From: Escherichia coli
GTDB lineage: Bacteria; Pseudomonadota; Gammaproteobacteria; Enterobacterales; Enterobacteriaceae
DNA: 64,000 bases
Direction: 5' to 3' (one strand)
Assembly: GCF_024223415.1 (NCBI RefSeq)
Contig: NZ_CP100500.1
Below, in pieces: positions 1,539 to 48,235 of this stretch (positions within the stretch are counted from its first letter, which is position 1; the number at the start of each line of letters is the position of its first letter). The position numbers and the translations under genes are program-made. The notes under the pieces were generated by a model. The model worked only from the letters and a program-made list of their open reading frames with translations. It searched no databases and had not been told where the DNA came from.

Positions 1539-1587
1539 AAGCCCGTATTTTACCGGGCTTATTCTGTGACAACCAGGATAAAGAGAT

Positions 1588-1935
1588 TTACAGCATGGTC
1601 AGGGAGGTCAGCAGCCGCTTAGGCTGTCGCCAGTCGATACCTTCCAGCAGCATCGCCAGCTGCGCCTGTGTAAGGAACACTTTGCCATCACGGGCTGACG
1701 GCCAGGCGAAGCGCCCACGCTCCAGCCGTTTGGTCAGGAGGCACAGTCCGTCACCGGTGGACCACAGCAGTTTAACCTGACTGCCGCTGCGGCCCCGGAA
1801 AATGAAAACATGGCCGGACATGGGATCGTCTTTCAGCGCCGTCTGTACTTTCGCAGCCAGGCCGTTGAAGCCATTTCTCATATCGGTGATACCGGCAACC
1901 AGCCAAATTTTGGTCCCGGAAGGTAAAGGGATCAT
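1588..1935 (-). CDS. IS66 Orf2-like accessory protein (TnpB of IS66 family)
   Basis: 115-aa [33 protein letters not shown]..., matches the IS66 orf2 family from memory. Confidence 0.85.
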
Positions 1936-2333
1936 CGCTTCAGTTCCTGTATCAGCAGAGTCAGGAGCTTTTCGCTGACATTGCCATTGAAGCGGAGCGT
2001 CCCGTGCCGGAACGTTACCTCACAGCTGATACTGAGGGTTTCCGGGTCCTCTGCGAGCGATTCTGGCTGTTCGGCAGCTGCATCGAGAGTCACAGGAAGT
2101 AGCTGGGGGCTCTCTGAAGAAGGTAATAGCAGCTTTCCCTCGCGCCATTGTTGTCGCCATTTGAACAACAGATTGGCGTTAATGCCATTTTCAAGAGCAA
2201 GTTTTGAGATGGATATCCCGGGTTCACAGGAGGCAGCAACGAGCTGCTGTTTAAATTCGGGAGGATAATTAGGGCAGCCTTTTCGCCTGCCGGGAGTCAC
2301 ATTTTTCTGCATATCTGACACTTTGGTTCCCAC
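1932..2333 (-). CDS. IS66 Orf1-like accessory protein
   Basis: 133-aa ORF overlapping orf2 by 4 bp, as is typical for IS66 family elements. Confidence 0.75.
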   Translation of the reverse strand: MGTKVSDMQKNVTPGRRKGCPNYPPEFKQQLVAASCEPGISISKLALENGINANLLFKWRQQWREGKLLLPSSESPQLLPVTLDAAAEQPESLAEDPETLSISCEVTFRHGTLRFNGNVSEKLLTLLIQELKR

Positions 2334-2764
2334 TACTTATTTGGTGGACACCACTTTGTCTAATTCGTCAGATTCTGACCAGACGGTTCAGGCTGTACGC
2401 TTACGCCTGAAAGCTGACTGCCTCCTGCTGAGGTGGGAGGCTATGATTCAGTGCGTTTATAGTCTCCGGGGTATGCATGTACCGGAGCATACCATTTCTG
2501 GTGGATAACAAGCCGGCACATTCAGACTGCAGTGAAGATGGAGGCACCTGGTTGTGAAGAACGTTTCTGCCCGTGGCTGCTTCGCATCATCAATGGTATT
2601 CATACCCGCTCAGAAATGACCGGGTGCTGAAGCCCTCCGTTATCGCGCAGTATAATGACGTATATGATCTGTGGACGAGTGAGCGGCGTGCCTGATGTAC
2701 GCCGCTATTACTGTATTTTACCACAGGGCTGGTTTTCTGCTGCCAGCCCTGTGGTTCTCAGACA

Positions 2765-3373
2765 TCAACTGTGAGCGGCATCAACCGATGTACGGTATGC
2801 CATAAGCACGTACTGATCCATCAGATTTGTCAGTGGTTCACTCTGACCCTGACGTGCAATGATCCATTGCTCCAGATCTTTTTCTGATTTGTGTTTCAGG
2901 TTTTTCGTCCAGTCGTCAAGGCTGTTTCCGGTCATTAAGTCAAGCCAGCAGAGCCAGACCAGTTTGAGACGTAACTCCGTGCCGCCAAACTGACGGAAGA
3001 GGCTGATCAGTTTGTTTGCCAGAGAATGTTGCTTCAGGCGCTCACATTCAGACAGCAGGATCCCTTCCAGCATCGGATGATGAACCAGCAGGTGTTCGCT
3101 GGTGCATAAATTCACCACCAGATCATCATCCAGGGACGGGGAGCTCCGTTTGTCCGGACCATAAATCAGCCGGTGCAGACTCTGGGGAACGATGGCAATC
3201 TCCGGTTTTTCGCCATTGAATGACACCCACCCGGGCGTCAGATTATGGAAATAGTAGATATTCGGATGACACACGCCCCATGATACGGCGTGCCGGGTGA
3301 AGCCGGTCAGCCATTTCTGGTAGTTTTCATGGAGCAGCTCGTAACGGGTCTGATACTGTTGTTTCATTTTCAT
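2765..3373 (-). CDS. hypothetical protein, island-associated, co-transcribed downstream of the alpA-like gene
   Basis: 205-aa ORF; likely start at an ATG a few codons inside the listed GTG start, with a GAGGA ribosome-binding site upstream; no family recognised. Confidence 0.5.
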   Translation of the reverse strand: MKMKQQYQTRYELLHENYQKWLTGFTRHAVSWGVCHPNIYYFHNLTPGWVSFNGEKPEIAIVPQSLHRLIYGPDKRSSPSLDDDLVVNLCTSEHLLVHHPMLEGILLSECERLKQHSLANKLISLFRQFGGTELRLKLVWLCWLDLMTGNSLDDWTKNLKHKSEKDLEQWIIARQGQSEPLTNLMDQYVLMAYRTSVDAAHS

Positions 3374-3460
3374 ATTCCTCACGGGGGATAACAGGCAGCA
3401 GAGCGCCGCCGGCAGGCCGGAGATTGCGTCTGCTGTGGGCGAAGGGTTAGTGGTTAAAAA

Positions 3461-3667
3461 TTACGGACGGGACTGTGCAATACGCGCCTGCAGCCAGGCT
3501 TCCACTTCACTTTTCAGCCAGCGGGAGCTGCGCCCCATTTTGATGGGCGCAGGAAAGCCCCCATCTTTGATGAGTTTGTCAAACCACTTATCGGTTAGGC
3601 CGGTCAGTTGAGTGATAAACGCCATGTCGACCATCTGGTCATCCATCAGCGAAACTGGGGTAGCCAT
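3461..3667 (-). CDS. AlpA-family phage regulatory protein (excisionase-like DNA-binding protein), about 68 aa
   Basis: MATPVSLMDDQMVDMAFITQLTGLTDKWFDKLIKDGGFPAPIKMGRSSRWLKSEVEAWL - typical AlpA/MerR-like HTH; start placed at the internal Met. Confidence 0.8.
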   Translation of the reverse strand: MATPVSLMDDQMVDMAFITQLTGLTDKWFDKLIKDGGFPAPIKMGRSSRWLKSEVEAWLQARIAQSRP

Positions 3668-4792
3668 GAGAATGTTCCTCCGGATGTTGTTAAACCAGCC
3701 GGTGTGGTCATGAAAACAGCGCGCCACCTTCACCGGCATAACAACCGGGGAGAAACGTAAAAAATAATCGGGAATGTGGCTGTCCGGAGATAAACGGGGG
3801 GATTGCGATGGCAGAGCCGTAGCGGAATCCCGGAGGGGGGTGTTGCAAAAGATGCTTCCGCACGCACGCGCGATAAAGAGGGGATAGTTTTCGTGAGGAC
3901 AGGGAGAGAAGCAGGCGTTCTGATAATTGCAGAGTTGTTTTCGGAGGTGGTTACAGTGAGTCAGCCCGTTCCTGGCGAGCAGGAGACTGATATCACCGAT
4001 GGGATAAGGTTGTCTGATTGGTATTATAAATATAAGAAGTCATCAGAGAGTAACGTAAAGGATTTGCCAGAATAACCTAAGAGAGTAAATCTCTCCGGTA
4101 ACAGAGCGCTATGAAGCATTCTGTATCAGAGTGCAGATACATGAACGCTGATGCGTAAAATCAGCAGTGACACGCCAGCTCCCCCTATGCCCATTCCTGT
4201 ATAAGACATGAACTGAGTGTATTAATGCTTCTGCCCTGAGACTGAGCCGGTGAGTGAGGGGCTGAGAAATCCCTCTTGACACAGCTCTAACCAGAAATAC
4301 TTCCCCGGTTGTTGCGGTGCGTCCGGATCCCCGATAACGGAACACTAAGGCTGTATTGCGGGACACCGGGTAAGTAGCAGCCCGTAAGGCGTTCTGTCAA
4401 CGCCAGAAAAAATGATTTCCCACACGCGTTATAGACTCACTCCTGTGGACCTGGAAGCCCGTAACTCTGCGGTTGCCCACTGACTGACGGAACTGACCGC
4501 AAATTTTACGAGTGCGTGCTGGGCTTCAGTCTGGTCACCTGAGCGTTCGGTAACGGAGGCGCGGGCGGTAATAGGCTGATTTTCAGGTATTACCGGCTTA
4601 CAGCGTGTGGTTGATATTGAGGGGCTGTGAGTTTCGCGTATTTGTCAGAAACCCAGACGAGTTTTCCTGTATGGGACGAAATAAGGCAGCGGCAATACCT
4701 GGAAAAATTTAATATGGTATGAAGGAGAACCTGTCGGTTACGCTTAATATACCCGGTACACTGTCAGCTCAGGGGATACATGAACCGTTATC

Positions 4793-4993
4793 TCACCAGC
4801 TACACAGTATATACACACTGACGCTGACAGTAGTCAGCAGGACCACAATAATCAGTGCCAGCAGTATGGTAACGATACGGTCTGTATTCCGGTAATAGCC
4901 GAAGGGGTCGACAGAACCACAATACGGGCAACACACTGTATTATGAGTAATCGCGTTTCCACAGTCCCTGCACTTCTTTTTGCGTATCACCAT
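4793..4993 (-). CDS. small zinc-ribbon protein with C-terminal transmembrane helix (about 66 aa), function unknown
   Basis: CRDCG...CCPYCG double CxxC followed by a hydrophobic stretch ILLALIIVVLLTTVSVSVYIL; GGAGGG ribosome-binding site 5 nt upstream of the ATG. Confidence 0.5.
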   Translation of the reverse strand: MVIRKKKCRDCGNAITHNTVCCPYCGSVDPFGYYRNTDRIVTILLALIIVVLLTTVSVSVYILCSW

Positions 4994-5156
4994 CACTCCC
5001 TCCTCACAGCCTTACCCGTAACCGGTTTTTTACATTAAAAAAACAACGCTGAAAATTCAACCGTCAGTCCGGAGACGACCGTTCGGGTTATCACAGAGTG
5101 CCTGAGACAGTGTCCTGCCGGAGGTCACTTCAGGGACTCTGCGCATTTTTTACGAC

Positions 5157-5762
5157 GTGGCTATTCCGTATGAACCATACGGAGATTTAACCATGACCTA
5201 CAAATACAACCCCTTCTGGCAGCAACGTATTCGTGAGACGGTGCGGCACGCACTGAATGTTCATCCCCGCCTGACGGCATTGCGGGTTGACCTGCGTTTC
5301 CCGGATGTACCGGCAGCAACGGACGCAGCTGTGATATCCCGCTTCATCAATGCCCTGAAAGCCCGAATCGACGCTTACCAGAAACGTAAGCATCGGGAAG
5401 GTAAACGCGTGCATCCCACCACCCTGCATTACGTCTGGGCCCGGGAGTTTGGGGAGTGCAAAGGTAAAAAACACTATCACCTGATGCTGCTGGTTAACCG
5501 GGATACCTGGTGTCGTGCCGGTGATTACCGTGCTCCGGGATCACTGGCCGGGATGATTAAACAGGCGTGGTGCAGTGCCCTGGGAGTGGATGTCGGGTGC
5601 CATGCCACGCTGGTGCATTTTCCGGCCTGGCCGGCGGTGTGGCTGGAACGCGATGATGACACTGGCTTTCAGCAGGTGCTGGAACGTGCTGACTATCTGG
5701 CGAAGGAACATACCAAAGCTCACTGCACCGGTGAGCGCAATTTTGGCTGTAGCCGGAGTTGA
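5157..5762 (+). CDS. HUH-type rolling-circle Rep-like protein (inovirus Gp2 / YagK-YfjJ-like family)
   Basis: 201-aa ORF with the motif KKHYHLMLLV (His-hydrophobic-His) and candidate Tyr motifs; family assignment from memory, not searched. Confidence 0.55.
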   Translation: MAIPYEPYGDLTMTYKYNPFWQQRIRETVRHALNVHPRLTALRVDLRFPDVPAATDAAVISRFINALKARIDAYQKRKHREGKRVHPTTLHYVWAREFGECKGKKHYHLMLLVNRDTWCRAGDYRAPGSLAGMIKQAWCSALGVDVGCHATLVHFPAWPAVWLERDDDTGFQQVLERADYLAKEHTKAHCTGERNFGCSRS

Positions 5763-6015
5763 GCACGACTGGCGCGCCAATATCCGGCAAACCAAAAGTA
5801 TGGGTTGTTGTCTGGCGGCAACGATGTATCCACTCGCCCACTGACTGTTTTTTACGTCAGTGTTCCATTGTGTGACAACCACAGTGCTGTAACAGCAACC
5901 AGCCTGCTTTACCCAAACTCCAGTCCAGATTTTAACTGAACCGCCATTCACACCCTGACCACGCTGCCCGTACCGGGACGGCTGTTGCCTGCGTGTCGTC
6001 TGGCGGCTGAGGAAT

Positions 6016-6423
6016 ATGACTATGTACGCAAAATCCTTTATCGCTCTTGATGGCAACGGACGTCTGACGGGCGCCCGTACTGCACAGGCCGCACCTTATG
6101 CTAACTACACCTGCCACTTGTGTGGCAGTGCACTCAGATACCATCCGCAATACGACACTGAACTTCCCTGGTTTGAACACACTGACGACAGGCTGACAGA
6201 GCACGGTCAACAGTGCCCTTATGTCAGGCCGGAGCGCAGAGAAATACAGTTGATTAAACGTCTGCAGCAATTCGTACCGGATGCCTTACCCGTGGTGCGT
6301 AAAGCCAGCTGGCACTGCAGACAATGTCACCACGATTATTATGGGGAGCGGTACTGCACACACTGCCAGACCGGAGGATTCAGTATTCCCCGGACAACTC
6401 AGGAGGAAATATGCGAATTCTGA
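6016..6423 (+). CDS. Cys-rich hypothetical protein A (putative double zinc-ribbon)
   Basis: 135-aa ORF; conserved pattern CxxC...PWFEH...C...CxxC...DYxGExxCxxC shared with the next ORF. Confidence 0.55.
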   Translation: MTMYAKSFIALDGNGRLTGARTAQAAPYANYTCHLCGSALRYHPQYDTELPWFEHTDDRLTEHGQQCPYVRPERREIQLIKRLQQFVPDALPVVRKASWHCRQCHHDYYGERYCTHCQTGGFSIPRTTQEEICEF

Positions 6424-6821
6424 ACTGTTATATGGCGAATGACAGCAAAGGCCATTTTGTTACGGCGAAAGAAGCAGCGAAGCACAACCGCCAGGACGTT
6501 TTGTGCTGTGTGTCCTGTGGATGCCCGTTAACACTTCAGCGGGGCAATGACGGACAACCACCGTGGTTTGAACATGACCAGATGACTGTCGCTGAGAAAA
6601 TCCTGCTGCGATGCACCTGGCTTGACCCGGCAGAGAAAGAGGCCCGTCGTTTGCATCTGCAGGGTATGACGGTTCCGGATTATACGGTGAAGGTGAGAAA
6701 GTGGTTTTGTGTGATGTGTGACGAAGATTATGAAGGAGAAAAGTGCTGCCCGCGTTGTGGTACCGGGGTATACAGCAGGGAGGGGGGGCTGCAGGAAGGC
6801 AACTGGAAGGATAGGAACTGA
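6411..6821 (+). CDS. Cys-rich hypothetical protein B, paralogue of A, translationally coupled
   Basis: ATG at 6411 lies just upstream of the stop of the previous ORF (6421-6423); same Cys/PWFEH pattern. Confidence 0.55.
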   Translation: MRILNCYMANDSKGHFVTAKEAAKHNRQDVLCCVSCGCPLTLQRGNDGQPPWFEHDQMTVAEKILLRCTWLDPAEKEARRLHLQGMTVPDYTVKVRKWFCVMCDEDYEGEKCCPRCGTGVYSREGGLQEGNWKDRN

Positions 6822-7024
6822 GCGGTTCAGTCGCGGAAATCAGTTGCAGAGCTGTAATGATATCTCCGGGAGTGCTGCGTTGGTAGGGGCATCCCGGGAT
6901 AGAGAAATTTTAGCACTTTGCCCTGAATGATTGTAGACGTTCCGAGTACTCGTACCGGTCTGAGTTATTACAGTTAGATATTCACTTTTTCTCCCGCATA
7001 CTTCACATCTGTCAACGACGGATG

Positions 7025-8757
7025 AAAAGTGGTTCTTCCGCAACCTGGGTGGAAGAAAATGGATGAAACTTTCTGGCGAACAAGGATCTAAGCTGTTTTA
7101 AGTTATGGGCAACGCAATGCACTCTCTTAAGACACTTCTACAGTTACCTTGCGGATGGCGATGCAGTCGACAAATTATTAGCTCTGACGGTATAACCCTC
7201 CATCTCCACGGAAAACGCAAAACAGCACAATGTCCTGAATGCTTTAAGCGTAGCGACTCTGTTCATAGTTGTCGTCGGCGCCGGATACAGCATCTACCCT
7301 GCTCAGGGCAGACGCTATGGCTTGTATTTTCCGTCCGCCACTGGTACTGCCGTAACCCGGCTTGTTCACGTAAAATTTTTGCCGAGTCGCTTGCTCCCTT
7401 CGCCGGTTCACACCAGCAGTCTTCACAGGCGTTACAAAATTTACAACGTCAACTGGGATTAATAGCTGGAGGTGAGGCTGGAAAACGGGCTGCAACGGCA
7501 GCGGGTCTCCGTTGCAGTGCTGATACTCTTCTTCGCAGGGTATCAATACCCCGGAGACGAAACAGTCAGGCGCGCCTCATGTCGGTATTGATGAGTGGGC
7601 GTGGCATCGGGGCCACTGCTGCGGTATGTTAATAGTCAATCTTGATACTCACCGTCCCCTCGTCCTGCTTCCCGGCCGTGATCAGCGTACGCTGGCGACC
7701 TGGTTCAGAAAATATCCGGAAATACAGGTTGTCTCGCGTGATCGCAGTGGAGTCTATGCGACAGCAGCACGTGAAGGTGCACCTCAGGCCAGACAGGTGG
7801 CCGATCGATGGCACCTGCTAAAAAATATTGGTGATGAGCCTGAACGAATGATGTACAGACATATGCCTCTGATACGTCTTGTTGTCAGAGAGTTATCACT
7901 GAAGAAATCACCTGAGCCAGAAATATCTGTGCCTGTAGCATCGCTCCGTCGTCTGGAACGCCTTAAACAGCACATCCGCAAAAAACGGCATCAGCGTTGG
8001 ACAGAGGTTATGGCCCTGCATAACAAGGGATGTAGTTTCAGGGAAATATCCCGTATTACAGGCCTGTCGCGAGTGACAGTCAGTCGCTGGGTGGGTTCAG
8101 GAACATTCCCTGAAATGTCAACTAGGCCTCCAAAGCGAGGGCTTCTGGACCCATGGAGGGAGTGGTTAAAAGAGCAACGAGAATGTGGTAATTATAACTC
8201 CGGCCGGATATGGCGGGAAATGGTGGCCAGGGGGGTTACAGGCAGTGAAACCATCGTCAGGGATGCTGTTGCCAAATGGCGTAAAGGCTGGATCCCACCG
8301 GTTACTACTGCCGCAAGACTTCCTTCAGTGTCCCGGGTAAGCCGCTGGTTGATGCCCTGGAGAATAATCAGGGGTGAAGAAAATTATGCTTTCCGATTTA
8401 TTAGTCTGATGTGTGAAAAAGAACCGGAGTTGAAAATAGCGCAGCAACTGGTACTCGAGTTCTACCGTATTCTGAAAACCTAAAATAAATCACAGCTAAG
8501 CAGCTGGTTCACTCGGGTCCACGAAAGCGGCTCAGCAGAACTTCGGTGCGTAGCTGCGGGGATGGAAGCTGATGCTGCGGCTATATGTGAGGCAATCAGC
8601 AGTCGCTGGAGTACTGGTGTTGTCGAAGGTCATGTAAATCGCCTGAAGGTGCTGATACGCCAGATGTATGGTCGAGCCGGACTTGAACTACTTAGGCGGA
8701 GGGTAATGAGTCCACTGGCATGAAAATCTTCACCCAGGTTGCGGAAGAGCCACTTTT
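7025..8757 (+). mobile_element. ISL3-family insertion sequence with imperfect terminal inverted repeats, decayed
   Basis: Left end aaaagtggttcttccgcaacctgggtg at about 7025-7051 and its near-perfect reverse complement at about 8731-8757; encloses an ISL3-type transposase. Confidence 0.7.
7105..8722 (+). pseudogene. ISL3-family transposase, disrupted by a frameshift near 7588 and an in-frame TAA at 8481-8483
   Basis: N-terminal zinc-finger region (CPECF...), ...IDEWAWHRGHCCGMLIVNLDTHRPL readable only after a frame change, then ...VVEGHVNRLKVLIRQMYGRAGLELLRRRV continues in frame after the stop. Confidence 0.75.
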
Positions 8758-8766
8758 GCACTGTTC

Positions 8767-9095
8767 GTGACAGTATGGCCTTTATGTACTCACTTTGTTA
8801 CCGGTAGCTGGATCATCACTACCGTGCTGCAAATGGTGGTGAACAGCATCAATTGTGGAATGAATGTTGCCGAAGCGACCAATGCGCCTCGTTTCCACTA
8901 TCAGTGGTTGCCGGACGAGCTGCGTGTTGAAAAGGGTTTAGTCCGGATACGCTCAAGCTGCTGGATGCAAAAGGTCAGAAAGTGGCGCTGAATGAGGCGA
9001 TGGGCAGCACGCAAAGCATTATGGTTGGGTCGGATGGTGAGTTGTACGGCGCATCCGACTCGCGCTTGGTGGATGATTTAACGGCGGGGTATTAA
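8767..9095 (+). pseudogene. ggt: gamma-glutamyltranspeptidase C-terminal fragment, frameshifted in an A-run near 8935
   Basis: GSWIITTVLQMVVNSI...NAPRFHYQWLPDELRVEKG then, after a 1-nt frame change, FSPDTLKLLDAKGQKVALNEAMGSTQSIMVGSDGELYGASDSRLVDDLTAGY; starts directly at the ISL3 right end. Confidence 0.7.
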
Positions 9096-9134
9096 TTGAC
9101 ATCCCCCGGCGCAATGTGCCGGGGGATAATGGTT

Positions 9135-10169
9135 TTATGCGGTCAATAATCGTCCGGGATTATCGATACAGAGTTTTTTGAGGATCGTTTTATCGACGCC
9201 GCGCTCCGCCAGATAGGCCAGAAAAACATCTGGAACAAATCCCCAGCCATTACCGCCATTTTTAGCCCACATTTGTTTAAGGAAGACATCGTGGCTGAGA
9301 ACAAGCTGATCGGCGTATCCCAACTCAATGAGATGAGCGACGGCATCGGCAGTCTCCTGCACCCCTGGCGCTATTCCCTCTTTCGGGAAGGTAATGTCTA
9401 GGCCAATCATGTCGAATTCCAGCCAGACACCTTTATCAAGCATTTTCCGCTGATACGCCACGTCTTTTCCTGACGGATCCGAGTGTGCGAGAGAGACTTT
9501 ATTTGGCGAGACGCCCATTTCACCTAACACAATGTCGAGTACTTCATCACCGCGACGAAGCCAGCCCGGCATGTGAATATTCATCGCCACATGAGGATTG
9601 TTAATCTGTGCCAGCGAGGCAGCCCGCAAGCTGTTATGCTCGGCTTCGGTAAATGTCGGTGAAACACCTATTTCACCGATCATTCCGGCACGAATATCCG
9701 TATCGCCAATCCCTTGATTCAATTCTTTATCGATCGTTGTCGCCAGTTCATCAACCGTTTTATGAATTCTCTGGCTTTCAAATTTTTCCAGGTAGGGACC
9801 GGAGGAAGCAACAATATTCAGACCTGTTTTTAATGCGACTTCTCGTAATGCCTGCGCATCTCGTCCGATAGACTCAGACCCTGTGGCATCAATAATGGTG
9901 CGACCACCGAGCGAGATAAAGTTATTGATTTCGAAGATCACATCTTCAATAGGTTTGCGGTCCATATTATCAGCGCAGCAATAAGGATCGTGTTTTAATG
10001 CCCACTGGATTTCTGCCGTGACTTTTTTATCAACAAGCCGTTGTGAAAAAGGATAGCAAGGAGCATCCACAACAGAGGAAAGATCGTTGAACAGATGTTC
10101 ATGAGGAAGTGTTAGCCCCATATCTTCACGGGCGACGGGGCCCGTCACAGTTTGTAGATAATCTTTCAT
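9135..10169 (-). CDS. phosphotriesterase-family metal-dependent hydrolase (Php-like, TIM-barrel amidohydrolase; possible lactonase)
   Basis: 344 aa; N-terminal GLTLPHEHL metal-binding motif characteristic of the PTE family. Confidence 0.8.
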   Translation of the reverse strand: MKDYLQTVTGPVAREDMGLTLPHEHLFNDLSSVVDAPCYPFSQRLVDKKVTAEIQWALKHDPYCCADNMDRKPIEDVIFEINNFISLGGRTIIDATGSESIGRDAQALREVALKTGLNIVASSGPYLEKFESQRIHKTVDELATTIDKELNQGIGDTDIRAGMIGEIGVSPTFTEAEHNSLRAASLAQINNPHVAMNIHMPGWLRRGDEVLDIVLGEMGVSPNKVSLAHSDPSGKDVAYQRKMLDKGVWLEFDMIGLDITFPKEGIAPGVQETADAVAHLIELGYADQLVLSHDVFLKQMWAKNGGNGWGFVPDVFLAYLAERGVDKTILKKLCIDNPGRLLTA

Positions 10170-10171
10170 GA

Positions 10172-11137
10172 TTATACCTCCATTTTCTTCATTGTTTTCG
10201 AGGTTCTGTATTCCGGAATAGTGGTAACAATTGCACCGACCAGTGCAAACAGTGTTCCGATGATCGTGACCAGATAAACGCTATTGCCCAGCGATGGAAT
10301 TAATACGTCAATCAATACTGATCCCAGTAACTGGCCCGCCGTTGAAGCAACCCCCAGCATCAGTAACCCCAGACCTCTGACCAAAATGGCCATTAAACCG
10401 ATAGACATTAGTCCAAGCGGGCCGCCAAGATACATCCACCAGACATCTGGTAATTGAACAGTGACGTGCCCTAATGCGACACGAATAGCAAGCGCTGTGC
10501 CTAAAACACAAAATCCAACGATGAAATTCTAGGTGATTGAAACCAGCATGGATCCCGTAGCTTCAGCTACTTTTGCATTTCCAGCGGGCTGCCATCCTGC
10601 AAGCAAACCAGCTAAGAACGGAAGAATGGCAAGTAAGATGAAAGAGGTAGAATGCCACTGAGGTGACACAACAAAAATCGTAGCAATAACCGCAAATAAT
10701 GCACCGATGATGCAATAAGGGGTAAAGTATTTTTTCTCGTCGACACCGATACCAAAGCGATCGCAAAGTAAACCAGACAGCAATAGCGCGGAGATCAGTG
10801 CGGTTTGAAACGTTGCGACCCCGAGTGCGCTGGCTGATGCGCCTTCAGAAAATACCACCATCGCTCCACAGAGACCGGCAAACCAGTTCCAGAGAGGAAC
10901 TTTTCGGTTTTTAATCAGAGAAGGAATTGCCGCAAATTGTTGCCGGGTTTCTTTTCGCGCCATAATAATAAAAAACATCACGACTAAACCACTGGCAAAG
11001 GAGATAACTGCGCATGCATTACCATCCTGTAACCAGTGACCTAATTGACCATTCACCGCTGATTGCATAGGGGAGAGCATACCCGCAAGAATCGTGGCAA
11101 GCATCCATAAGGGAGTTGAGTACTTATTCTTTTTCAT
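10172..11137 (-). pseudogene. DMT-superfamily (DUF606/YdcZ-like) membrane transporter interrupted by an in-frame amber codon at 10529-10531
   Basis: ORFs 10529..11137 and 10172..10435 are in the same frame; the sequence between them encodes hydrophobic helix-like residues; the single TAG (plus-strand cta) separates them. Confidence 0.7.
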
Positions 11138-11193
11138 ACATCAATCCTTCTATTATAGTAAATGGAGTAACTGGAGTTACCCCATTATTATTA

Positions 11194-11952
11194 TTATCTT
11201 GCAATATGAGTCAGTATATTTACCCACAACGCGGTATAGAACGGCCAGGACATAAACTGCTGTGTACCCCAGTGCGGTGAACAGTCACTCATAAAGCAGG
11301 CTATTTTCCCGTTGTGATAGTTACCAAAGACCAGTAATGGAGCGTTGTTTATTGTTAATACCACCTCAGCATTTTCTTTAGCGATCGCCCGGTTATAACC
11401 TAGGAAAAAAGGATATTCAGAGAACCCTTTAATAACTGGATGTTCAGGTTGTGATGGCTGTGCAATAACACCCTCTGGTTTTTCGACACGATCGTCACCA
11501 TCTAACATCGTAACCGGGAGCACATCAGCCAGAACTGTATTTTTATAATTGGCTTTTGCTTCAATTCCCATGAATGAGAGATAGCCGCCAATCATCAATA
11601 ACCCACCACCGTTATTCACATATTCTTTAATCAGTTCGAGAGCGTTTGGTTTTATGCGAAGCTGATAAAAAGTATCATTTTGTAGCAGGAAAGTATTACT
11701 ACCAATATCACTAATAACGATGGCATCATATTGTTCTAACTGTGCCACATCTTCAGGGAAGGCAATTTGTACCGTATGTGCTGGCATATAGGTGACATCT
11801 ACCTGACTATTTTTCAGACACTGGAGTAACCAGGTCGCACCTTCTTCATATTTACTTGAGGTAAAACTGTCATATCCTTTTGAATGAATCATATGAATAT
11901 GCCAGGATTCCCCAATAAAGAGCACTTTTAGTGATTTTTTGGTGTTATTCAT
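11194..11952 (-). CDS. ThuA-like / class I glutamine-amidotransferase-like domain protein
   Basis: 252-aa ORF; fold assignment from sequence impression only. Confidence 0.45.
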   Translation of the reverse strand: MNNTKKSLKVLFIGESWHIHMIHSKGYDSFTSSKYEEGATWLLQCLKNSQVDVTYMPAHTVQIAFPEDVAQLEQYDAIVISDIGSNTFLLQNDTFYQLRIKPNALELIKEYVNNGGGLLMIGGYLSFMGIEAKANYKNTVLADVLPVTMLDGDDRVEKPEGVIAQPSQPEHPVIKGFSEYPFFLGYNRAIAKENAEVVLTINNAPLLVFGNYHNGKIACFMSDCSPHWGTQQFMSWPFYTALWVNILTHIAR

Positions 11953-11965
11953 TCTCTGTCCCTTC

Positions 11966-13180
11966 TTAATGCGTAAAAATAGTTTGCTGATAATGTATAC
12001 TCTGAATTCGATGTATCACAGATTCATGTTCAGGCATGTCGGAAGCATTGCTTGTCTCCACCGCTAGGGATGCAAAGGCGCTGGCATAACACAGTGCTGA
12101 TTCCAGTGATTTTCCTTTCGCAAGTCCTGATGCCAGAGAGCCGTTAAACGCATCCCCGGCTCCTGCCGTATTTTTAACGACCGCTGGAAACGCTGGCGAA
12201 TGAATGAATTTTTTGCCATCAAATGCGAGCGAGCCCTTGCTACCGAGCGTGATAACCGTGTTTTTTACCCCTTTATTGTGGATAGCTTCTGCAGCTCGTT
12301 TAGCTGATTCAAGATCGTGTACGTCTATGCCGGACAGTAAACCAGCTTCTGTTTCATTGGGGGTGATATAATCAACATCCTGAATAAGTTCGTTGACGAT
12401 ATCATTATAGGGTGCCGGGTTAATAATGACCGGGATACTGTTTTTTTGCGCCAATGTGATCGCTTGTTGCAGAGCGGTATAATTTGTTTCGAGCTGCAGA
12501 AGTATGACATCAGAATTAATAATCGCTTCTTTCTGAATAGTTATTTCATCGGACGACATTGTCATGTTGGCACCGGGATAGATCGCAATAACATTATCGC
12601 CAGTACCTTCATTAACAAGGATCGTGGCAGTTCCGGTTTGCGTTTCTTTCGTTTGATAAATTATACTTTTATAAATCTTAGACGAATTCATAAAGTTGAT
12701 CGCATAATCACTAAAGTGATCTGTACCTACTTTTGTTATGAAATAAACATCAGTATCGGCAAAGCTTGCTGCCAGCGCCTGGTTACAGCCTTTTCCCCCC
12801 GGTGAAAATATAAAATTACTTGCCAGAAGCGATTCTCCGATAGTGGGAAGCCTCGGCAAATAACTGATGATATCAACATTAAACGAACCAATAACGCATA
12901 CTTGACTTTTCATAGTTGAGTGGCCTTTTTTTATTCCCTGGGCTGTATCATAATTTTCAAGCGCATAAGCGATTTCATTTTTCGCAATAGTATCAAGCGA
13001 GTCTAGGACGATAAAAGCACCGCCATGACATCGAGTCAGATAGCCAAGCCTGGCAAGTTCATTAAGATCTGAACGAATAGTTTCTTTCGTTACATTGAGG
13101 CTATTGGACAGATCGGATACTTTTACAGAACCGAATTTACTGAGTCGTTTCAATATTTCATGATGGCGTTCAAATTTCAT
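11966..13180 (-). CDS. fusion protein: N-terminal DeoR-type HTH plus PfkB/ribokinase-family carbohydrate kinase
   Basis: N-terminus HHEILKRLSKFGSVKVSDLSNSLNVTKETIRSDLNELARLGYL (DeoR HTH); kinase motifs GGKGCNQA and NTAGAGDAFNGSLASGL. Confidence 0.7.
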   Translation of the reverse strand: MKFERHHEILKRLSKFGSVKVSDLSNSLNVTKETIRSDLNELARLGYLTRCHGGAFIVLDSLDTIAKNEIAYALENYDTAQGIKKGHSTMKSQVCVIGSFNVDIISYLPRLPTIGESLLASNFIFSPGGKGCNQALAASFADTDVYFITKVGTDHFSDYAINFMNSSKIYKSIIYQTKETQTGTATILVNEGTGDNVIAIYPGANMTMSSDEITIQKEAIINSDVILLQLETNYTALQQAITLAQKNSIPVIINPAPYNDIVNELIQDVDYITPNETEAGLLSGIDVHDLESAKRAAEAIHNKGVKNTVITLGSKGSLAFDGKKFIHSPAFPAVVKNTAGAGDAFNGSLASGLAKGKSLESALCYASAFASLAVETSNASDMPEHESVIHRIQSIHYQQTIFTH

Positions 13181-13287
13181 GCTTCACCTCACTTCAGTTA
13201 CGTTAATATCTATCGATGTATATTGATGTGATAATCACCATAAAGTGGCGGGGAAAAGCAAAAAAAAGCAAAAATAGCCTGAGAAAA

Positions 13288-13850
13288 GGTAAGCGTTAAT
13301 GGAGAATCATATTGATGCTTATTTATTGGTGAGAACTACGTTCCATGGCAGGAGTTCATCAATACGGTTGGAAGGTTATTCCGGCAGTACGCTCAGGATA
13401 TGGCGCAGATACGCTTCCGGATCAATGTCGTTCAGAAGGCAAGTGCCGATAAGCCCATACAACAGTGCACTGCGCTCGCCGCCGAAGAACATAAAGTTTT
13501 TATTTCCGAGACAGATGGCACAAAGGGCTTTTTCCGCGGCATTATGTCTGCCTCCGCCTGACCGTCAACACTGTAATAACAGAGTGCGCCCCACTGATTC
13601 AGTACACAGCTGAACCATTCTCCCAGTCTGGATTTTTGGATAGCGTGGCATTTTTCTCCACCATGCATGCAGTGAGTCCAGTAACAGTTTGCTCTTCTTC
13701 TGCCTGACCACAAGATGTGCTGGACTGGTAAACGATGGGGATACCTGCTTACGCGAGAGCAATAAGTGGCTGGCCACAATTCTCGGTACAAAACTCTGCT
13801 GAATAGCAGCGATTTTCCCAGCGTGGTGCGTCGTTTTCATTTTACTGGTT
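13288..13850 (-). mobile_element. IS66-family remnant: terminal repeat (GTAAGCG at 13288) plus frameshifted 3' part of a transposase gene
   Basis: Minus-strand translation near 13327-13380 gives PSNRIDELLPWNVVLTNK*, resembling the IS66 transposase C-terminus; upstream frames are broken. Confidence 0.6.
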
Positions 13851-15230
13851 CTAAGTTAACAATTATCTGTTCACTAATGACTACTCTAAAAACTTGTATC
13901 AGGACTATCACTTATTTAAGTGATATTGGTTGTCTGGAGATTCAGGGGGCCAGTCTATAAACTTTTTACAAAAGGATGAATGCAGAAGGTTACTCTAATG
14001 GCCAGAGTGATGACAATGATGGTCAGACGTTGACCTGCAGAAACTGCATTTTAATTGGTCTATAAAGTCTGCAAGAGGAATCAGGGTCAGATCAGTGAGT
14101 CTTATCGCGGCCCGAAGCTATGACTGAAAGAAGGCTGGATACAGAATTGCAACAATTTGGCAATGTCAGAACACAGAAGCTTTGCAAGCAGGTGAAAGGT
14201 TATGTCTAGCAAAAGGAGTATATCAGAATACATCTACTGATGTACAAAACACAACAATAGCTTCATGATATATAAATACGTGATGACGAGTGGTACTCCG
14301 CATGGTTATTTAACTTCTCAGCACCACTAATGATCCTGAGCAACTTCGTATTTGGGCCATTGCCATGGAGTAGAAAGCTGTGTCTGAGAATGCAGAATTT
14401 GAGAAAAGAATTCGCTTTCTTGGAGAGCTTCTGAAAATGGCACGCTAACAACGTTTTGTTAAAAAATGTGAATCACTTGCCGGGGCTGCATTTTCTATTC
14501 GAGGAGAATGTTGACGTAGATATTACAGAAATCTCAGCGCATCAGGATAAACTGCTACCTTAGGTCAACCACCAAAAGAAAATACAATACGTCCAGTTTG
14601 TATGCCTTTAATAACACATCTTCTAAATGTTGAAGAATTATCCCGCCTGCTGAAGAACGTTGCTCTGAGTGTGATAAACCTTTTTATTCTTGATGATGTC
14701 AGCGAGAAGATGGAATATATCCCCGACTGGGTCGTGGTTACCCGGTTAAACATCTGGTGGCGCTAATAAATCTGGCAAGTCACATTCTGTTGAATGCTGT
14801 GACAGTGCCTTACCGAGAGAGCGAAATTGTGGTGTTCTAGTGCATAGTCGCCACCATTCCGGATAATTCTATTGCGTTGTTTTACAAGTTCTTTTACAGC
14901 GCAGATCTGTTGCTGACGTTGAATCAATAGCCTGGATTTCAGAACACAATGCCCGTTTGCTGGTTGGTCCGGCAGTAGCATTAATTCATTATCTGAATGA
15001 AATGTGTCAATCCACAGAAACCGCTGTCAATGACACATTTTGTCGGACGTTAACACGAGAAAGTCTGGCTATTCCGTAATGCCATCTTATTTCGTAATGG
15101 ATTGAGAATGCTGGATTTTTAATTATATTACGCGCAGTATTAATCGCGTAAATGTTTTGCGGTCAGCAACGGTGGGGGATCCATTGTTCTGTTCAATGAA
15201 TACCATCATACATTTGAATCAGGAGTCGGT

Positions 15231-28971: not shown

Positions 28972-37638
<8,667 letters not shown>

Positions 37639-37875
37639 TATGATTGAAAATTAATAACTTTTCGTTAAGCAGTTTTGGGTGTGAGTTGCAAGAGGGGAGA
37701 CTACTGAATTACTCAAGTTTTGTAATCGAGGGGAAAATGGTGATGGCGTTCATAGCAAAACGCCCTCAACCATAAAGGTCGAGGGCGCTTAAGATGTCAA
37801 AAACCCGCTATCCGTTAAAAAGCAATGCTCAACTAAGGTCAGTGACATTGCGCTAAAAAGCGAATTTTTAGAATT

Positions 37876-37951
37876 TGGCTCCTCTGACTGGACTCGAACC
37901 AGTGACATACGGATTAACAGTCCGCCGTTCTACCGACTGAACTACAGAGGA
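37876..37951 (-). tRNA. asnT: tRNA-Asn (GUU)
   Basis: Identical to asnV/asnU. Confidence 0.95.
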
Positions 37952-38051
37952 ATCGTGAGAACGGGGCGCATATTACTTAGCGGTACCTTGTCTGTCAACA
38001 CTAAATTTCATAAGTCATTTCAATTGGTTAATTAATCCGCAAAGTTGTTAA

Positions 38052-38849
38052 TTAATGAACATTCGTCGCCGAAAACGAGTCTGTATCATTAGCGTGATGC
38101 AGTCTCTGCAAAGGATCTTGTTGATAAAATTGGCAGAAACGTTGCCACAATGAAGGGAAACGAGGAGCAAAAAGTTCTGGGGCGCTAAAGAAATATTCAG
38201 AAAGTACGGCAAAACACTCAGCAGGATCACTGGCAGCATAAGCATCGATGCTCGCCGCATTCTCGCCAACTAATTCGATTTCTTCCTGAATGTTGTTCAT
38301 TGCAGCATGAAGATCGTGTTCCCAGCCAGCAACCTCACGCAACGGAATAAAGGGAACTCCGCTGGCGCGATCGCCGTTACGGGTGTCCAGCTTATGAGCG
38401 ACTTCATGAATAATCAGGTTAAAACCAGAAGCATCAAAAGAATCTTGTATATCCAACCAGTTCAAAACGATAGGCCCTTGCTGCCAGCTCTGACCTGACT
38501 GAACAATACGTTGGTTATGCACCAGACCGATATCGTCTTCCCATTCGTCATCGACCACAAATGGCGCAGGATAAATTAAGACTTCATGAAAACCATCCAG
38601 CCATTCCAGTCCTAACTCCAGAACGGGCAGGCAAAATAGAAGTGCTATCCGGCAGCTTCTTAATGAATCCAGTTCAAAGTCCTGTAAAGGAACAAGCCGC
38701 TTTTGCTGTAAAAAACGTTCGGCAAGAGTGACTAATTTGCTTTGTTCCTGTTCCGTCAGACACGTTAAAAGGGGGATCGATAGTGCTTCCTGCCAGGGAA
38801 GGGCAGTTTGATGTGCTGATTCTTGTACTTTCCAGGGCCACTTAATCAT
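38052..38849 (-). CDS. mtfA: Mlc titration factor A (zinc-dependent peptidase-like)
   Basis: 265 aa from [19 protein letters not shown] motif. Confidence 0.9.
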
Positions 38850-38942
38850 CGTTTTGCTCGCAAACTCGTCACTTGAACAAAATTGCACGGACAGGGACTG
38901 TTAAAATGCCAAATTTCCTGGCATCATGGCAACCATCTGAAC

Positions 38943-39032
38943 GGAGAGATGCCGGAGCGGCTGAACGGACCGGTCTCGAAAACCGGAGTAGGGGCAACTC
39001 TACCGGGGGTTCAAATCCCCCTCTCTCCGCCA
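38943..39032 (+). tRNA. serU: tRNA-Ser (CGA)
   Basis: GGAGAGATGCCGGAGCGGCTGAACGGACCGGTCTCGAAAACCGG...CTCTCCGCCA, long variable arm, anticodon CGA. Confidence 0.9.
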
Positions 39033-39701
39033 CTTTATCAATGACTTATCTCCCGACTTACCGCCTTGCTTTTCCTAAACAGAACAATCGTAGAATATTC
39101 TTGAAGGGTTAGATCGTCACTGTTTTCTGTTCGATACTGTGACATTCAGCACTTGATTCGCTATGGATCTGACAGGAAGGTTTCGAGCGAAAATCTGCAG
39201 TTATTCAGTCGTTTTCTTATCGGTCACCATTATTCTTTTAGACATTGATCCTACGAAGCTGCCGCAAAGTTGGTGGTGGGAACTGAAGTTGCGTAGAGAA
39301 GGGGTCAATAATTGAGCCAAAAAAGGAACGCGGCCGTCAGATTAAAGCCGCGGGACAAAGTCCATAATTTCCAAGAGTTGTTGAATTTCCCAGCTTTTTT
39401 GAAAGCCTTTGTATCATACTAACAAGTAAAAAAGGTTTAAATACCAAAATTAACCTATATTTCTGGTTAGCTTTACCATGACAGATGACTTGCTCCTGGA
39501 GACATTGGCGCTGCCAGTCTGTATTGGTGAGTTGTGTATTTATTGTTCGCCGCTTTCTCGGTTTTTTTCTACAGACATAATAAAAAAGACACGTCTCAAG
39601 CATGAGCGTGTCTGAGTTTGTTTTATTTATTTGTCTTGGTAAATTATTGTCGTTACTACCAGGCACTGTTCTGTTAAATAATTGAAGTCAGCGCAAAAAA
39701 A

Positions 39702-40352
39702 TCAATGAGACATCATCTCCTCGACCACTTCTTCGCTACTCAACTGATAGGGATAATACGTTGGCCAGTTTTCCATTTCATTCAATAAAGATTGCTGTGA
39801 ATCATTACCCATAAAAATGTGAAAATGAGATGATTTTCGTGGTGCAATTATATGATCGCTAAATTGAATATATTTAGGGGCTTTGCTTTCAGGATCTTTA
39901 CATTCGAATAAGTAACGAACGCCTTTCTTGCCTGATTTATAGGTGAGTATTTTGTATCCCTCGTAATCATATTTACAGGATGTTGTTTCATTATTTCTAT
40001 GGAATTCAACAATGCCGTCCTCAATGCCAATCATCTCGATATCTGTCGCATAACCTTTGTGATAATAATCTTTAATTTCAGCAAATGTTTTAGTTTTATC
40101 TGCATCCGCTTTCTTCTGAAAGACGGGATCAAGTTTGCCACTTTGCAGTAAAGGATAAACGGATTGCCAGACTCCATCCCAGTCACTGAGCGTTCGATTT
40201 TGTACATTGGCATCATCAAAAACACCATTAGCAGCTTTTTGTTCGATCTCTGTTAAAGGTTTGCCGTGTGAGTGATGACCATGCGAAAAGGCAGGAGCGC
40301 TAACAATAAAGACGCCTAAAGCAACAGCCAGTTTATGAAGACGAATCGCCAA
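39702..40352 (-). CDS. zinT: zinc/cadmium-binding periplasmic protein
   Basis: 216 aa, His-rich N-terminus [12 protein letters not shown]. Confidence 0.9.
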
Positions 40353-40385
40353 AACAGTTTCCTCCAGAGTTATTGTACATGATGT

Positions 40386-40408
40386 GTTATGTTATATTGT
40401 AACATATG
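40386..40408. promoter_or_regulatory. Zur-box-like palindrome upstream of zinT
   Basis: tgttatgttatattgtaacata (ATGTTA-N5-TAACAT) about 35-55 bp upstream of the zinT ATG. Confidence 0.5.
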
Positions 40409-40545
40409 GCGAAATGCAATAACTCTTAGAAAACGAGAGCATAGTTTTCTCAGGTGTATTTACCTATCTTATTGAAATAAAATAAATTATGTCGATGATT
40501 TGAGGTTGATGACAAACGAAACATAACCTGATGCGATCTGTGTGG

Positions 40546-40575
40546 GCCGGATAAGGCGCTCGCGCCGCATCCGGC
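40546..40575. repeat. REP (repetitive extragenic palindrome) element
   Basis: gccggataaggcgctcgcgccgcatccggc. Confidence 0.6.
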
Positions 40576-40608
40576 AGGGATAACGCGTACTTTGTCGGCA
40601 ATATGAAG

Positions 40609-41244
40609 TTATAGAGATAATTTGTTGTGAACCTGCTTGCGTAACCGGTTGAAAAAGGAAAGCAACTTCTTATACCGTAAGGCTAAAAGCAGTACCGCCA
40701 GCCCAGCGTAGATGAGCGGCTGCGGTGAAATAATCTTCACTGACCACAGATAATGTATTGGGGCCAGGATCGCGACAAGATAGACGAAATTATGCAACTG
40801 TTGCCAGTGCTTGCCGAGTTTTCGCTGCATCGCCTGGGTTGAAGTAAACGCTAAAGCAAGCAAAATAACCCAGCTGATAATTCCTAACGTTAAATAAGGC
40901 CGGGTAATTAACTCCTTACCTAATAACGCCAGATTATTCACGCCCAGCTCCAGCAATGCGTAACTGGTTAAATGCAGTGTCGCCCAGGCAAAGCACCATA
41001 AGCCTAACAGGCGGCGAGTGCGTATCAATAACGGCTGTTTTGCGTAGCGTGCCAGAGGTGTGATTAACAAGGTCGCCAGCAAAAATTTCAGTGCAGTGCG
41101 ACCGGTAAAATGCTGAATATCTTTCACTGGATCGGCACCCAGTCCACCGTGATTGATCGCCCAGACCAGCCAGAGAAACGGCAACAATCCGGCAAGATGC
41201 AGGCAAACTTTCAGCCATGTCACCTGTTTTGCTGTCAGACGCAT
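40609..41244 (-). CDS. msrQ: methionine sulfoxide reductase haem-binding membrane subunit
   Basis: 211-aa polytopic membrane protein immediately downstream of msrP. Confidence 0.9.
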
Positions 41245-42255
<1,011 letters not shown>

Positions 42256-46483: not shown

Positions 46484-47671
46484 TTAGAACTGGTAGACTA
46501 AGCCCACAGCAACGATATCATCGGTAGCGATACCGTTTTCTTTGTAGAAGTCGTCGTCGTTGTCCAGCAGGTTGATTTTGTAATCAACGTAGGTGGACAT
46601 GTTTTTGTTAAAGTAATAGGTCGCACCGACTTCAACGTATTTAACCAGATCTTTGTTTGCGTAGTGATGATTACCCTGGCTATCAAAGTTATCACCATTC
46701 AATCCGCCTAAATCCTTACCTTTAGATTGCAGGTAAGCGATGGACGGGCGCAGACCGAAGTCGAACTGATACTGAGCAACAACTTCAAAGTTTTGGGTTT
46801 TGTTAGCGATGGCATCAGCATCACCGTAACCAGTCATGTTACGGGTTTCAGCATACATAGCTGCTAAGTAAACGTTATTAGCGTCGTATTTAGCACCAAC
46901 GGTCCATGCTTCTGCTGTTTCACCGCCAGCAGTTGCATCGAAGCGATCTCCATAACGAGTGTTATGCAAACCTTTGTGAACCTGATTGTCAGTACGGTCA
47001 GAATTAGAATATGCAGCACCCAGACTTAAACCAAAGTCAAAGTCATAGGAAGTGGACATACCGTAACCGTCGCCGTTCTCTTTAGCAAGTTTACGGCCAT
47101 TCCCGTTACCTGAACCTTCTTGATCAAATAATCCGCTTTTCTCGTTGTTACCTTGATACTGGAGTGCAAAGTTCAGACCATCAACTTGACCAAAGAAACC
47201 ATTGTTACGATAGGTTGCTACGCTGTTAGCACGACCGTTCATGAAGTTGTCGGCACCAGCATAGGTATCGCCACCAAATTCTGGCAGCATATCGGTCCAT
47301 GCTTCGATGTCATATACGACACCGTAGTTACGACCATAGTCGAAAGTACCATTCTGACCAAAGCCTAAACCTGCAAATGCCAGACGCGTTGCGGTATTAC
47401 CTTTGTCGCTTTCAGGACCGTTTGCGCCAATGTTAAATTCCCACTGACCATAACCAGTGAATTGGTCAGCGATCTGAGTTTCACCTTTGAAACCGATACG
47501 GGCATATGACATGTCGCCATCGCTGCCAGCATCATCAGAGAAGTAGTGCAGGCCCGCTACTTTTCCGTACAAATCCAGTTTATTACCATCTTTATTATAG
47601 ACTTCAGCCGCATTTGCTGCGCCAGCAACTAATAACGCCGGGACCAGCATTGCCAGAACTTTTCTTTTCAT
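46484..47671 (-). CDS. yedS: general outer-membrane porin (OmpC/OmpF/NmpC family), intact
   Basis: 395 aa from [22 protein letters not shown]-terminal ...VGLVYQF beta-barrel signature. Confidence 0.8.
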
Positions 47672-48235
47672 TATGTATTCCCTTGTGATTATAATCTTCA
47701 TGGATATATCAATAAGTGCCGTTATCCAAAAAAGCACATTTGGATACTATTCTATGAAGTTCATTTTATTTTAAGGGTTACATGTAACAAATGTATTTAA
47801 AAGATTTCAAAATGTTTCCAATCTATTTAATATAATTCAGAATTATGAATTCTAGATATAAGCATTCATGAGATTTATAAATATATATCAATATGTTATG
47901 AGTTAATCGGAAAGATAGGGAGTATCAATGAGTGTTGCGCTAAACGGCTGGTGTGATCACGCGCATATTAATGAAGGCATAAAAAAAAGCCGGCATCATG
48001 CCGGCCCAAAAAATATAAACAAGACGATAAAAGGCTAATAACGGGGTTATCATGACACAGAAATCAAAAAAGGTATAATTGAATTCGGTGCTAATATATT
48101 GTTTAGGTGAATTAATAAAACCATTACCATAGATAATAATAAATCTTTATTGCTGTTTTTCCGGTAATTATTGCCATTGCGCAAAAATTATCTATTTGTT
48201 CAAAAAATGATTGAGTCTTGACTGGCTCATCCAAT

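Follow-up and report, generated by a model that had tools for sequence, protein, structure and literature searches.

A gene-free serU-zinT spacer in an Escherichia coli genome and its yodB-bearing counterpart in K-12

The serU-zinT locus

The window analyzed here is the whole stretch of 64,000 nucleotides taken from contig NZ_CP100500.1 of the E. coli assembly GCF_024223415.1. The locus of interest comprises mtfA, serU, an intergenic spacer and zinT, and is followed by msrQ and then msrP beyond zinT (Table 1). The product of mtfA is 99.6% identical to K-12 MtfA (tblastn), and ZinT shares 98.6% amino-acid identity with its K-12 counterpart. The distance between zinT and serU had been given as about 670 bp in the initial annotation; with the serU end placed by ARAGORN at 39032 and the zinT ORF ending at 39702, it is exactly 669 bp. 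Across this locus (38700-40500) the window is 100% identical to strain WG5, which we take to be a derivative of E. coli C. When a longer stretch (37200-42000) was compared with the WG5 locus (L002), the first 200 bases were found to match, and the full 4801 bases were not byte-identical; the window may therefore derive from a C-type strain other than WG5. In the WG5 record, locus tags go from CSR56_RS09320 to RS09330 between the tRNA-Ser gene and zinT, while they advance in steps of five elsewhere in the table; the skipped tag may reflect an earlier annotation of a spacer feature that has since been withdrawn.

Table 1. Coordinates of the features discussed, in positions of the window.
Feature	Position	Strand	Description
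yeeJ (inverse autotransporter adhesin)	28972-37638	-	2888 aa
mtfA (DgsA anti-repressor)	38052-38849	-	Left flank; annotated in the identical WG5 record
serU, tRNA-Ser(CGA)	38943-39032	+	ARAGORN; Rfam tRNA, 57 bits; intact, island-free
serU-zinT spacer	39033-39701		669 bp, gene-free
serU-proximal spacer segment	39033-39479		447 bp; common to both E. coli haplotypes
50-aa ORF with one hydrophobic stretch	39163-39315	+	Differences among strains mostly non-synonymous
Second hairpin (CGCGGCC/GGCCGCG)	39319-39352	-	Stem 39329-39352, then U-rich tail UUCCUUUUUU
Longest ORF of the interval	39337-39666	-	109 aa
Promoter-like site	39441-39413	-	9/12 matches
Haplotype-specific segment	39480-39701		222 bp; K-12 counterpart is 995 bp containing yodB
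Predicted zinT intrinsic terminator	39581-39613	-	10-pair hairpin 39587-39613, 4-nt loop; U6 at 39581-39586
zinT (metal-binding protein)	39702-40352	-	Right flank; ORF and annotation
Intact Porin_1 ORF	46484-47737	-	E = 4.6e-142

The spacer contains a predicted standard rho-independent terminator of zinT. It starts 89 nt past the zinT stop codon and folds at -15.3 kcal/mol (z = -4.25), a value that none of 200 shuffled sequences equaled; a simple pattern scan had missed it owing to the bulge. In E. albertii the stem is apparently kept by a change from A-U to G-C on both sides, as judged by eye from the alignment. For the annotation of 39033-39701, this terminator is the only addition needed.

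A second hairpin on the same strand (-12.1 kcal/mol) is not statistically distinct from shuffled sequences (z = -1.1); it is a possible back-up terminator. Together with its U-run and a promoter-like site, it could delimit a short transcript, about 90 nt in length. The part of the spacer in question (39316-39441, minus strand) is the least variable one within E. coli, is largely deleted in E. albertii and has no match in Rfam. A permissive Rfam search of the interval returned the tRNA alone, plus two sub-threshold overlaps of that tRNA.

Islands and prophages inserted at serU are known from other strains, including PAI-CFT073-serU and PAI-536-serU (PMC7545054). In the window, mtfA, serU, the spacer and zinT are contiguous, and there is no integrase-bearing island at serU. 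A second copy of the serU 3' end was not found in the window, nor were direct repeats found in 38700-40500; the spacer was rejected as the scar of an excised island, as it shows neither a duplicated tRNA end nor repeats. Strain Nissle 1917 belongs to the same yodB-free haplotype, but its serU is occupied by an integrase-bearing island, whereas serU in the window is unoccupied. Integrase islands that duplicate the last ~14 or ~62 nt of serU were also observed in other E. coli and in Escherichia sp. MOD1-EC7003 (loci L098 and L003). With these islands in place, the spacer stays next to zinT; the 3' part of serU corresponds to 38971-39032 of the window.

Comparison with K-12 and the search for yodB

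The initial annotation gave the K-12 gene order as zinT-yodB-serU-mtfA. This order is correct: the K-12-type record NZ_CP152465.1 (L001) carries msrP-msrQ-zinT-yodB-serU-mtfA-asnT-yeeJ, with a zinT-serU spacer of 1442 bp. In the window, msrP, msrQ, zinT, serU, mtfA, asnT, and yeeJ follow one another in the same order and orientation, and the terminator hairpin is recognizable in both. The difference lies in the spacer, where K-12 has 995 bp encoding a 176-aa cytochrome b561 homolog, YodB (PF01292), in place of 222 unrelated bp, so that the spacer of the window is 773 bp shorter.

The 447 bp that follow serU align with K-12 without gaps, with 16 mismatches (96.4% identity). The breakpoint is marked by a shared motif, TTACCAT, which ends at 39479; from there, 222 bp of the window stand against 995 bp of K-12, and homology picks up again exactly at the zinT stop codon. 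The sole piece that the 222 and 995 bp have in common is a stretch of 37 nt with 78% identity, which corresponds to the zinT terminator hairpin. The K-12 allele is not a clean insertion, as sequence is replaced on both sides of this conserved hairpin. The difference between the two alleles is best described as the replacement of one sequence by another and not as a clean deletion. No convincing target-site duplication, terminal inverted repeat or phage gene remnant was found flanking K-12 yodB. The G+C content (41.5%, compared with 38-40% in the flanks) is uninformative on an insertion in K-12.

The K-12 copy of the hairpin (L001, positions 3135-3190) folds at -19.7 kcal/mol (z = -5.7), and is followed by UAUAUUAAU instead of the U6 tract. 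Because of this replacement, read-through from zinT into yodB is conceivable in K-12 and other strains bearing yodB.

It had been noted from the start that the interval contains no reading frame resembling a membrane protein, and both Pfam and tblastn searches bear this out: no cytochrome b561-type ORF was detected. Three ORFs of the interval (109, 50, and 45 aa) gave no Pfam match at E<=0.1, while K-12 YodB (176 aa), used as a control, matched PF01292 at 3e-22. An ORF of the PF01292 type and of about 176 aa is absent from the site. No frame with multiple hydrophobic membrane-spanning segments was found; isolated hydrophobic stretches occur on the plus strand in stop-free runs of 32-53 codons. 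The 50-aa ORF, which includes one such stretch, was considered as a small protein and rejected, being not conserved as a protein and without a Pfam match. Its start codon is missing in E. albertii, as read from the alignment.

Searches for displaced or degraded copies of yodB were equally negative. When YodB was compared by tblastn with the entire 64-kb window, nothing was found at E<=1e-5, i.e., there was no sign that the gene had moved elsewhere inside the window. The alignment with K-12 that the initial annotation had proposed as a check was carried out: yodB does occupy the zinT-serU interval of K-12, and a recognizable remnant was not found in the interval of the window. The expectation drawn from K-12 synteny is the one point in favor of yodB persisting here as an unrecognizable pseudogene, decayed in place. 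The interval itself speaks against it. With filters off and a threshold of E<=100, the best tblastn match of YodB to the interval scored 20.0 bits, but 30 shuffled sequences reached 21.9 bits; moreover, the top unfiltered matches lie on the wrong strand, inside the 447 bp which K-12 has too. Similarly, a blastn search of the 222 bp against the 995 bp of K-12 (word size 7) recovered the 37-nt terminator hairpin as its sole match, which lies outside yodB. A gene of 531 bp could by no means fit into the 222 bp, which are conserved as non-coding DNA in 2304 genomes and in E. albertii. We consider decay in place scarcely credible, and it is refuted at the sensitivity of these blastn and tblastn searches.

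Distribution of the two alleles and polarity of the change

The distribution of the alleles was assessed in 5426 complete E. coli genomes. The 222-bp allele was found in 2304 of them (about 42%) and the 995-bp yodB allele in 3114 (57%), while the 447-bp segment is almost universal, at 5420 of 5426 genomes; coverage of the 669-bp spacer is 80% or more in 2281 genomes. The two alleles sum to 5418 genomes, with an overlap that is at most marginal, and these counts leave almost no room for relocation of yodB across the species. The zinT-serU interval is a dimorphic locus with an ordinary presence/absence polymorphism. The window belongs to the yodB-free haplotype, its 447-bp segment running directly into the 222 bp up to the zinT stop codon. 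The absence of yodB is not an assembly artefact, because the locus is 100% identical to that of WG5 and the arrangement is common to 2281-2304 complete genomes.

Examples of the yodB-free class include WG5, Nissle 1917, SF-468, CT30, 2015C-4944, and Z142-7; yodB is carried by K-12, BL21 (BL21-AI), ATCC 8739, O157:H7, and O121 strains. The spacers of Nissle 1917, CT30, Z142-7, 2015C-4944, and WG5 measure 667-669 bp, are colinear over their full length and have no annotated gene; colinearity was also seen when the window was aligned with four other yodB-free strains. The sub-type represented by the window and WG5 is rare, with 31 genomes at least 99% identical over the 222 bp. The bulk of the yodB-free class (1890 genomes) shows 90-95% identity to the window over the same segment, which argues for a deep class, long resident in E. 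coli. For the 995 bp of the yodB class, identity to K-12 is 95% or more in all except ten of the 3114 best matches (98.4% in O157:H7); this comparison of allele diversity mixes coding and non-coding DNA and expresses identity to one query, not pairwise diversity.

The polymorphism is already visible in thousands of annotated genomes. In the literature, we found no paper describing it or linking yodB with zinT; mentions of yodB are incidental and call it a cytochrome b561 homolog. At this locus, about 42% of the complete E. coli genomes, with C-type strains and Nissle 1917 among them, represent naturally occurring yodB-null strains, and they offer a ready comparison for studies of the cytochrome b561 paralog YodB.

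Outgroups were taken as one genome per species with ZinT, and those from Escherichia consist of one E. albertii and one cryptic-clade genome; the ZinT clusters at 90% identity lump Escherichia species, so that the outgroups do not include a locus named as E. fergusonii or E. marmotae. In E. albertii NBRC 107761 (L004) the order is msrQ-zinT-567 bp-serU-mtfA, and there is no YodB. The E. albertii spacer matches that of the window through the breakpoint (blastn, interval positions 398-481, 75%). The 240 bp nearest to zinT in E. albertii can be aligned over their full length with all 222 bp of the window segment, with 144 of 216 positions identical (67%; z = 25.6 against shuffles), whereas the counterpart sequence of K-12 does not align with E. 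albertii (z = 1.9). Unlike the window, E. albertii has three large gaps in the part matching the 447-bp segment; identity between the two spacers is about 67-84%. YodB is likewise missing after zinT in the cryptic-clade genome, Escherichia sp. MOD1-EC7003, in which the spacer is shorter still (about 150 bp) and the island adjoins a serU 3' fragment. In other genera, none of 78 loci had YodB within 5 kb of ZinT.

The window-type, yodB-free layout most likely predates the split of E. coli and E. albertii, because E. albertii is without yodB and is colinear across the breakpoint. The yodB allele would then most simply be derived, as a later gain, and the polarity that we infer is the reverse of the earlier reading. 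Over the 26 bp that lead up to the breakpoint, K-12 shows 4 differences from E. albertii and the window shows 9; K-12 is closer to E. albertii here, and therefore both alleles have changed since the split.

We consider it probable (roughly 0.7) that the empty site of the window is the ancestral state and that yodB of K-12 is a later gain. The ancestral Escherichia zinT-serU spacer would have been gene-free, and yodB would never have been part of the window haplotype. The content of the spacer would amount to the zinT terminator, the conserved serU-proximal segment and non-coding filler. Along the branch that gave rise to K-12, BL21, ATCC 8739, O157:H7, and others, the 222 bp would have been exchanged for 995 bp with a self-contained yodB cassette (promoter region and ORF), probably acquired horizontally and with a putative phage-related origin.

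The same comparisons bear on a true deletion, in which an E. coli ancestor had zinT-yodB-serU and the lineage of the window haplotype lost yodB. Such a loss would agree with the occurrence of yodB at exactly this site in K-12, BL21, ATCC 8739, O157:H7, and 57% of complete genomes, with the 773-bp shorter spacer of the window and with the closer match between K-12 and E. albertii just ahead of the breakpoint (26 bp). However, a deletion should leave the K-12 flanks joined, and the window instead has 222 bp that are absent from K-12 and homologous to E. albertii (z = 25.6). Deletion therefore needs an ancestor with both segments, followed by two independent losses. In addition, both examined Escherichia outgroups are without yodB, and yodB orthologs of intermediate identity were not found outside E. 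coli. We regard a true deletion as unlikely.

The initial annotation had suggested that yodB was deleted or fully decayed. The gene is indeed absent here and present in K-12, but neither process is supported: the 222 bp oppose 995 unrelated bp of K-12 and align end to end with the yodB-free spacer of E. albertii, which does not fit a simple deletion, and no decayed remnant was detectable by blastn at word size 7 or by tblastn with its shuffle control.

The alignable part of the window is 1.5-4% diverged from K-12, save for a few kilobases of low or high divergence; mtfA, at 0.9%, is the least diverged near the locus. The yodB-free allele sits in a large block, of at least 50 kb, that is divergent from K-12, and not in a small local patch. 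These observations are relevant to a further alternative, according to which E. coli was ancestrally yodB-positive and the empty allele was recombined in from an E. albertii-like or otherwise divergent Escherichia donor and then spread. Both the colinearity of the empty allele with E. albertii and the divergence of the window, by which large divergent blocks occur in the region, would suit an import. Against this, the 67% identity to E. albertii over the 222 bp is far too low for a recent transfer, identities of 90-95% to the window in the majority of the empty-allele class argue for long residence in E. coli, and the adjacent 447 bp are typical of E. coli at a place where E. albertii has three large gaps. 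Import from such a donor seems highly improbable. With the ancestral empty site as the preferred reading, the yodB-free allele would have entered the E. coli C-type strain by a route that may have involved the large divergent block within which it lies. When a gene of K-12 is absent from another strain, this should not be taken as a loss, since K-12 can be the derived state.

Directly after serU, the first ~130-146 bp (39033-39170) are unusually conserved in Escherichia, with 93% identity to MOD1-EC7003 and 84% to E. albertii, in contrast to the decay of the remaining spacer. Even so, a stretch of ~135 bp from serU onward was found to fold less stably than shuffled sequences (z = +2.4).

Relatives of yodB and the wider window

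Homologs of YodB fall at ~99% identity within E. coli, the next ones are at 77%, and nothing was found between; the nearest relatives outside E. coli are 72-77% identical. Matches of 84-92%, considered as orthologs from other Escherichia, were rejected, since they turned out to be E. coli copies carrying frameshifts or numerous errors. Two relatives with 76% identity were checked, P0010 (named Citrobacter portucalensis) and P0004 (from a 495-member cluster). Both are located in prophages, between holin/lysozyme and HNH/terminase/portal genes. At the nucleotide level, these prophage relatives are 71% identical to K-12 yodB, and in one of two groups (L089-L091) the homology reaches 88 bp upstream of the ORF. 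YodB also matches phrog_31729 at 5e-39. A Salmonella homolog with 65% identity lies at an unrelated chromosomal locus.

In lambdoid-type prophages, the cytochrome b561 genes (P0004 and P0010) thus sit between lysis and packaging genes, whereas K-12 yodB has no adjoining phage gene. The 76%-identical prophage relatives have the organization of a phage moron, a self-contained gene that brings its own upstream region and is lodged between functional modules. Examined as a possible moron, K-12 yodB shows homology over the cassette, including the upstream part in one group; flanking phage genes, att sites and target duplications are absent. A DNA search of the phage collection gave a sole match, which is chromosomal flank within a partial record named 'phage SerU-LTIIb'; this record takes in the yodB flank. 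The sequence relationships support a mobile, phage-moron-like origin of the yodB cassette, and the link between yodB and prophage cytochrome b561 genes is a modest lead on the source of the gene.

A fuller scenario can be put forward more tentatively, at somewhat less than even odds. According to it, K-12 yodB is a captured cassette of the phage-moron type, which, in the ancestor of the lineages that carry yodB, replaced the 222 bp of the ancestral spacer and removed the zinT U-tract, so that read-through from the zinc-regulated zinT may be possible; the window would represent the state before the insertion, and the two haplotypes would have coexisted since.

Several other differences from K-12 were observed in the window. 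Positions 1-13900 have no regional counterpart in K-12, which has an IS5/IS2/CP4-44/flu segment there. This part of the window encodes a YagK/YfjJ-like protein, ISL3 transposase fragments, a phosphotriesterase-family protein, a YdcZ exporter, a GATase1-like protein and a DeoR-PfkB kinase. The yeeJ gene is longer than in K-12 (7077 bp, about 2358 aa), with extra Ig-like repeat units around 33.1-34.3 kb and a local divergence of up to 14%. The intact Porin_1 ORF corresponds in K-12 to a frameshifted pseudogene with an internal stop, annotated as 'ompC', and the porin region is 8-12% diverged from K-12.
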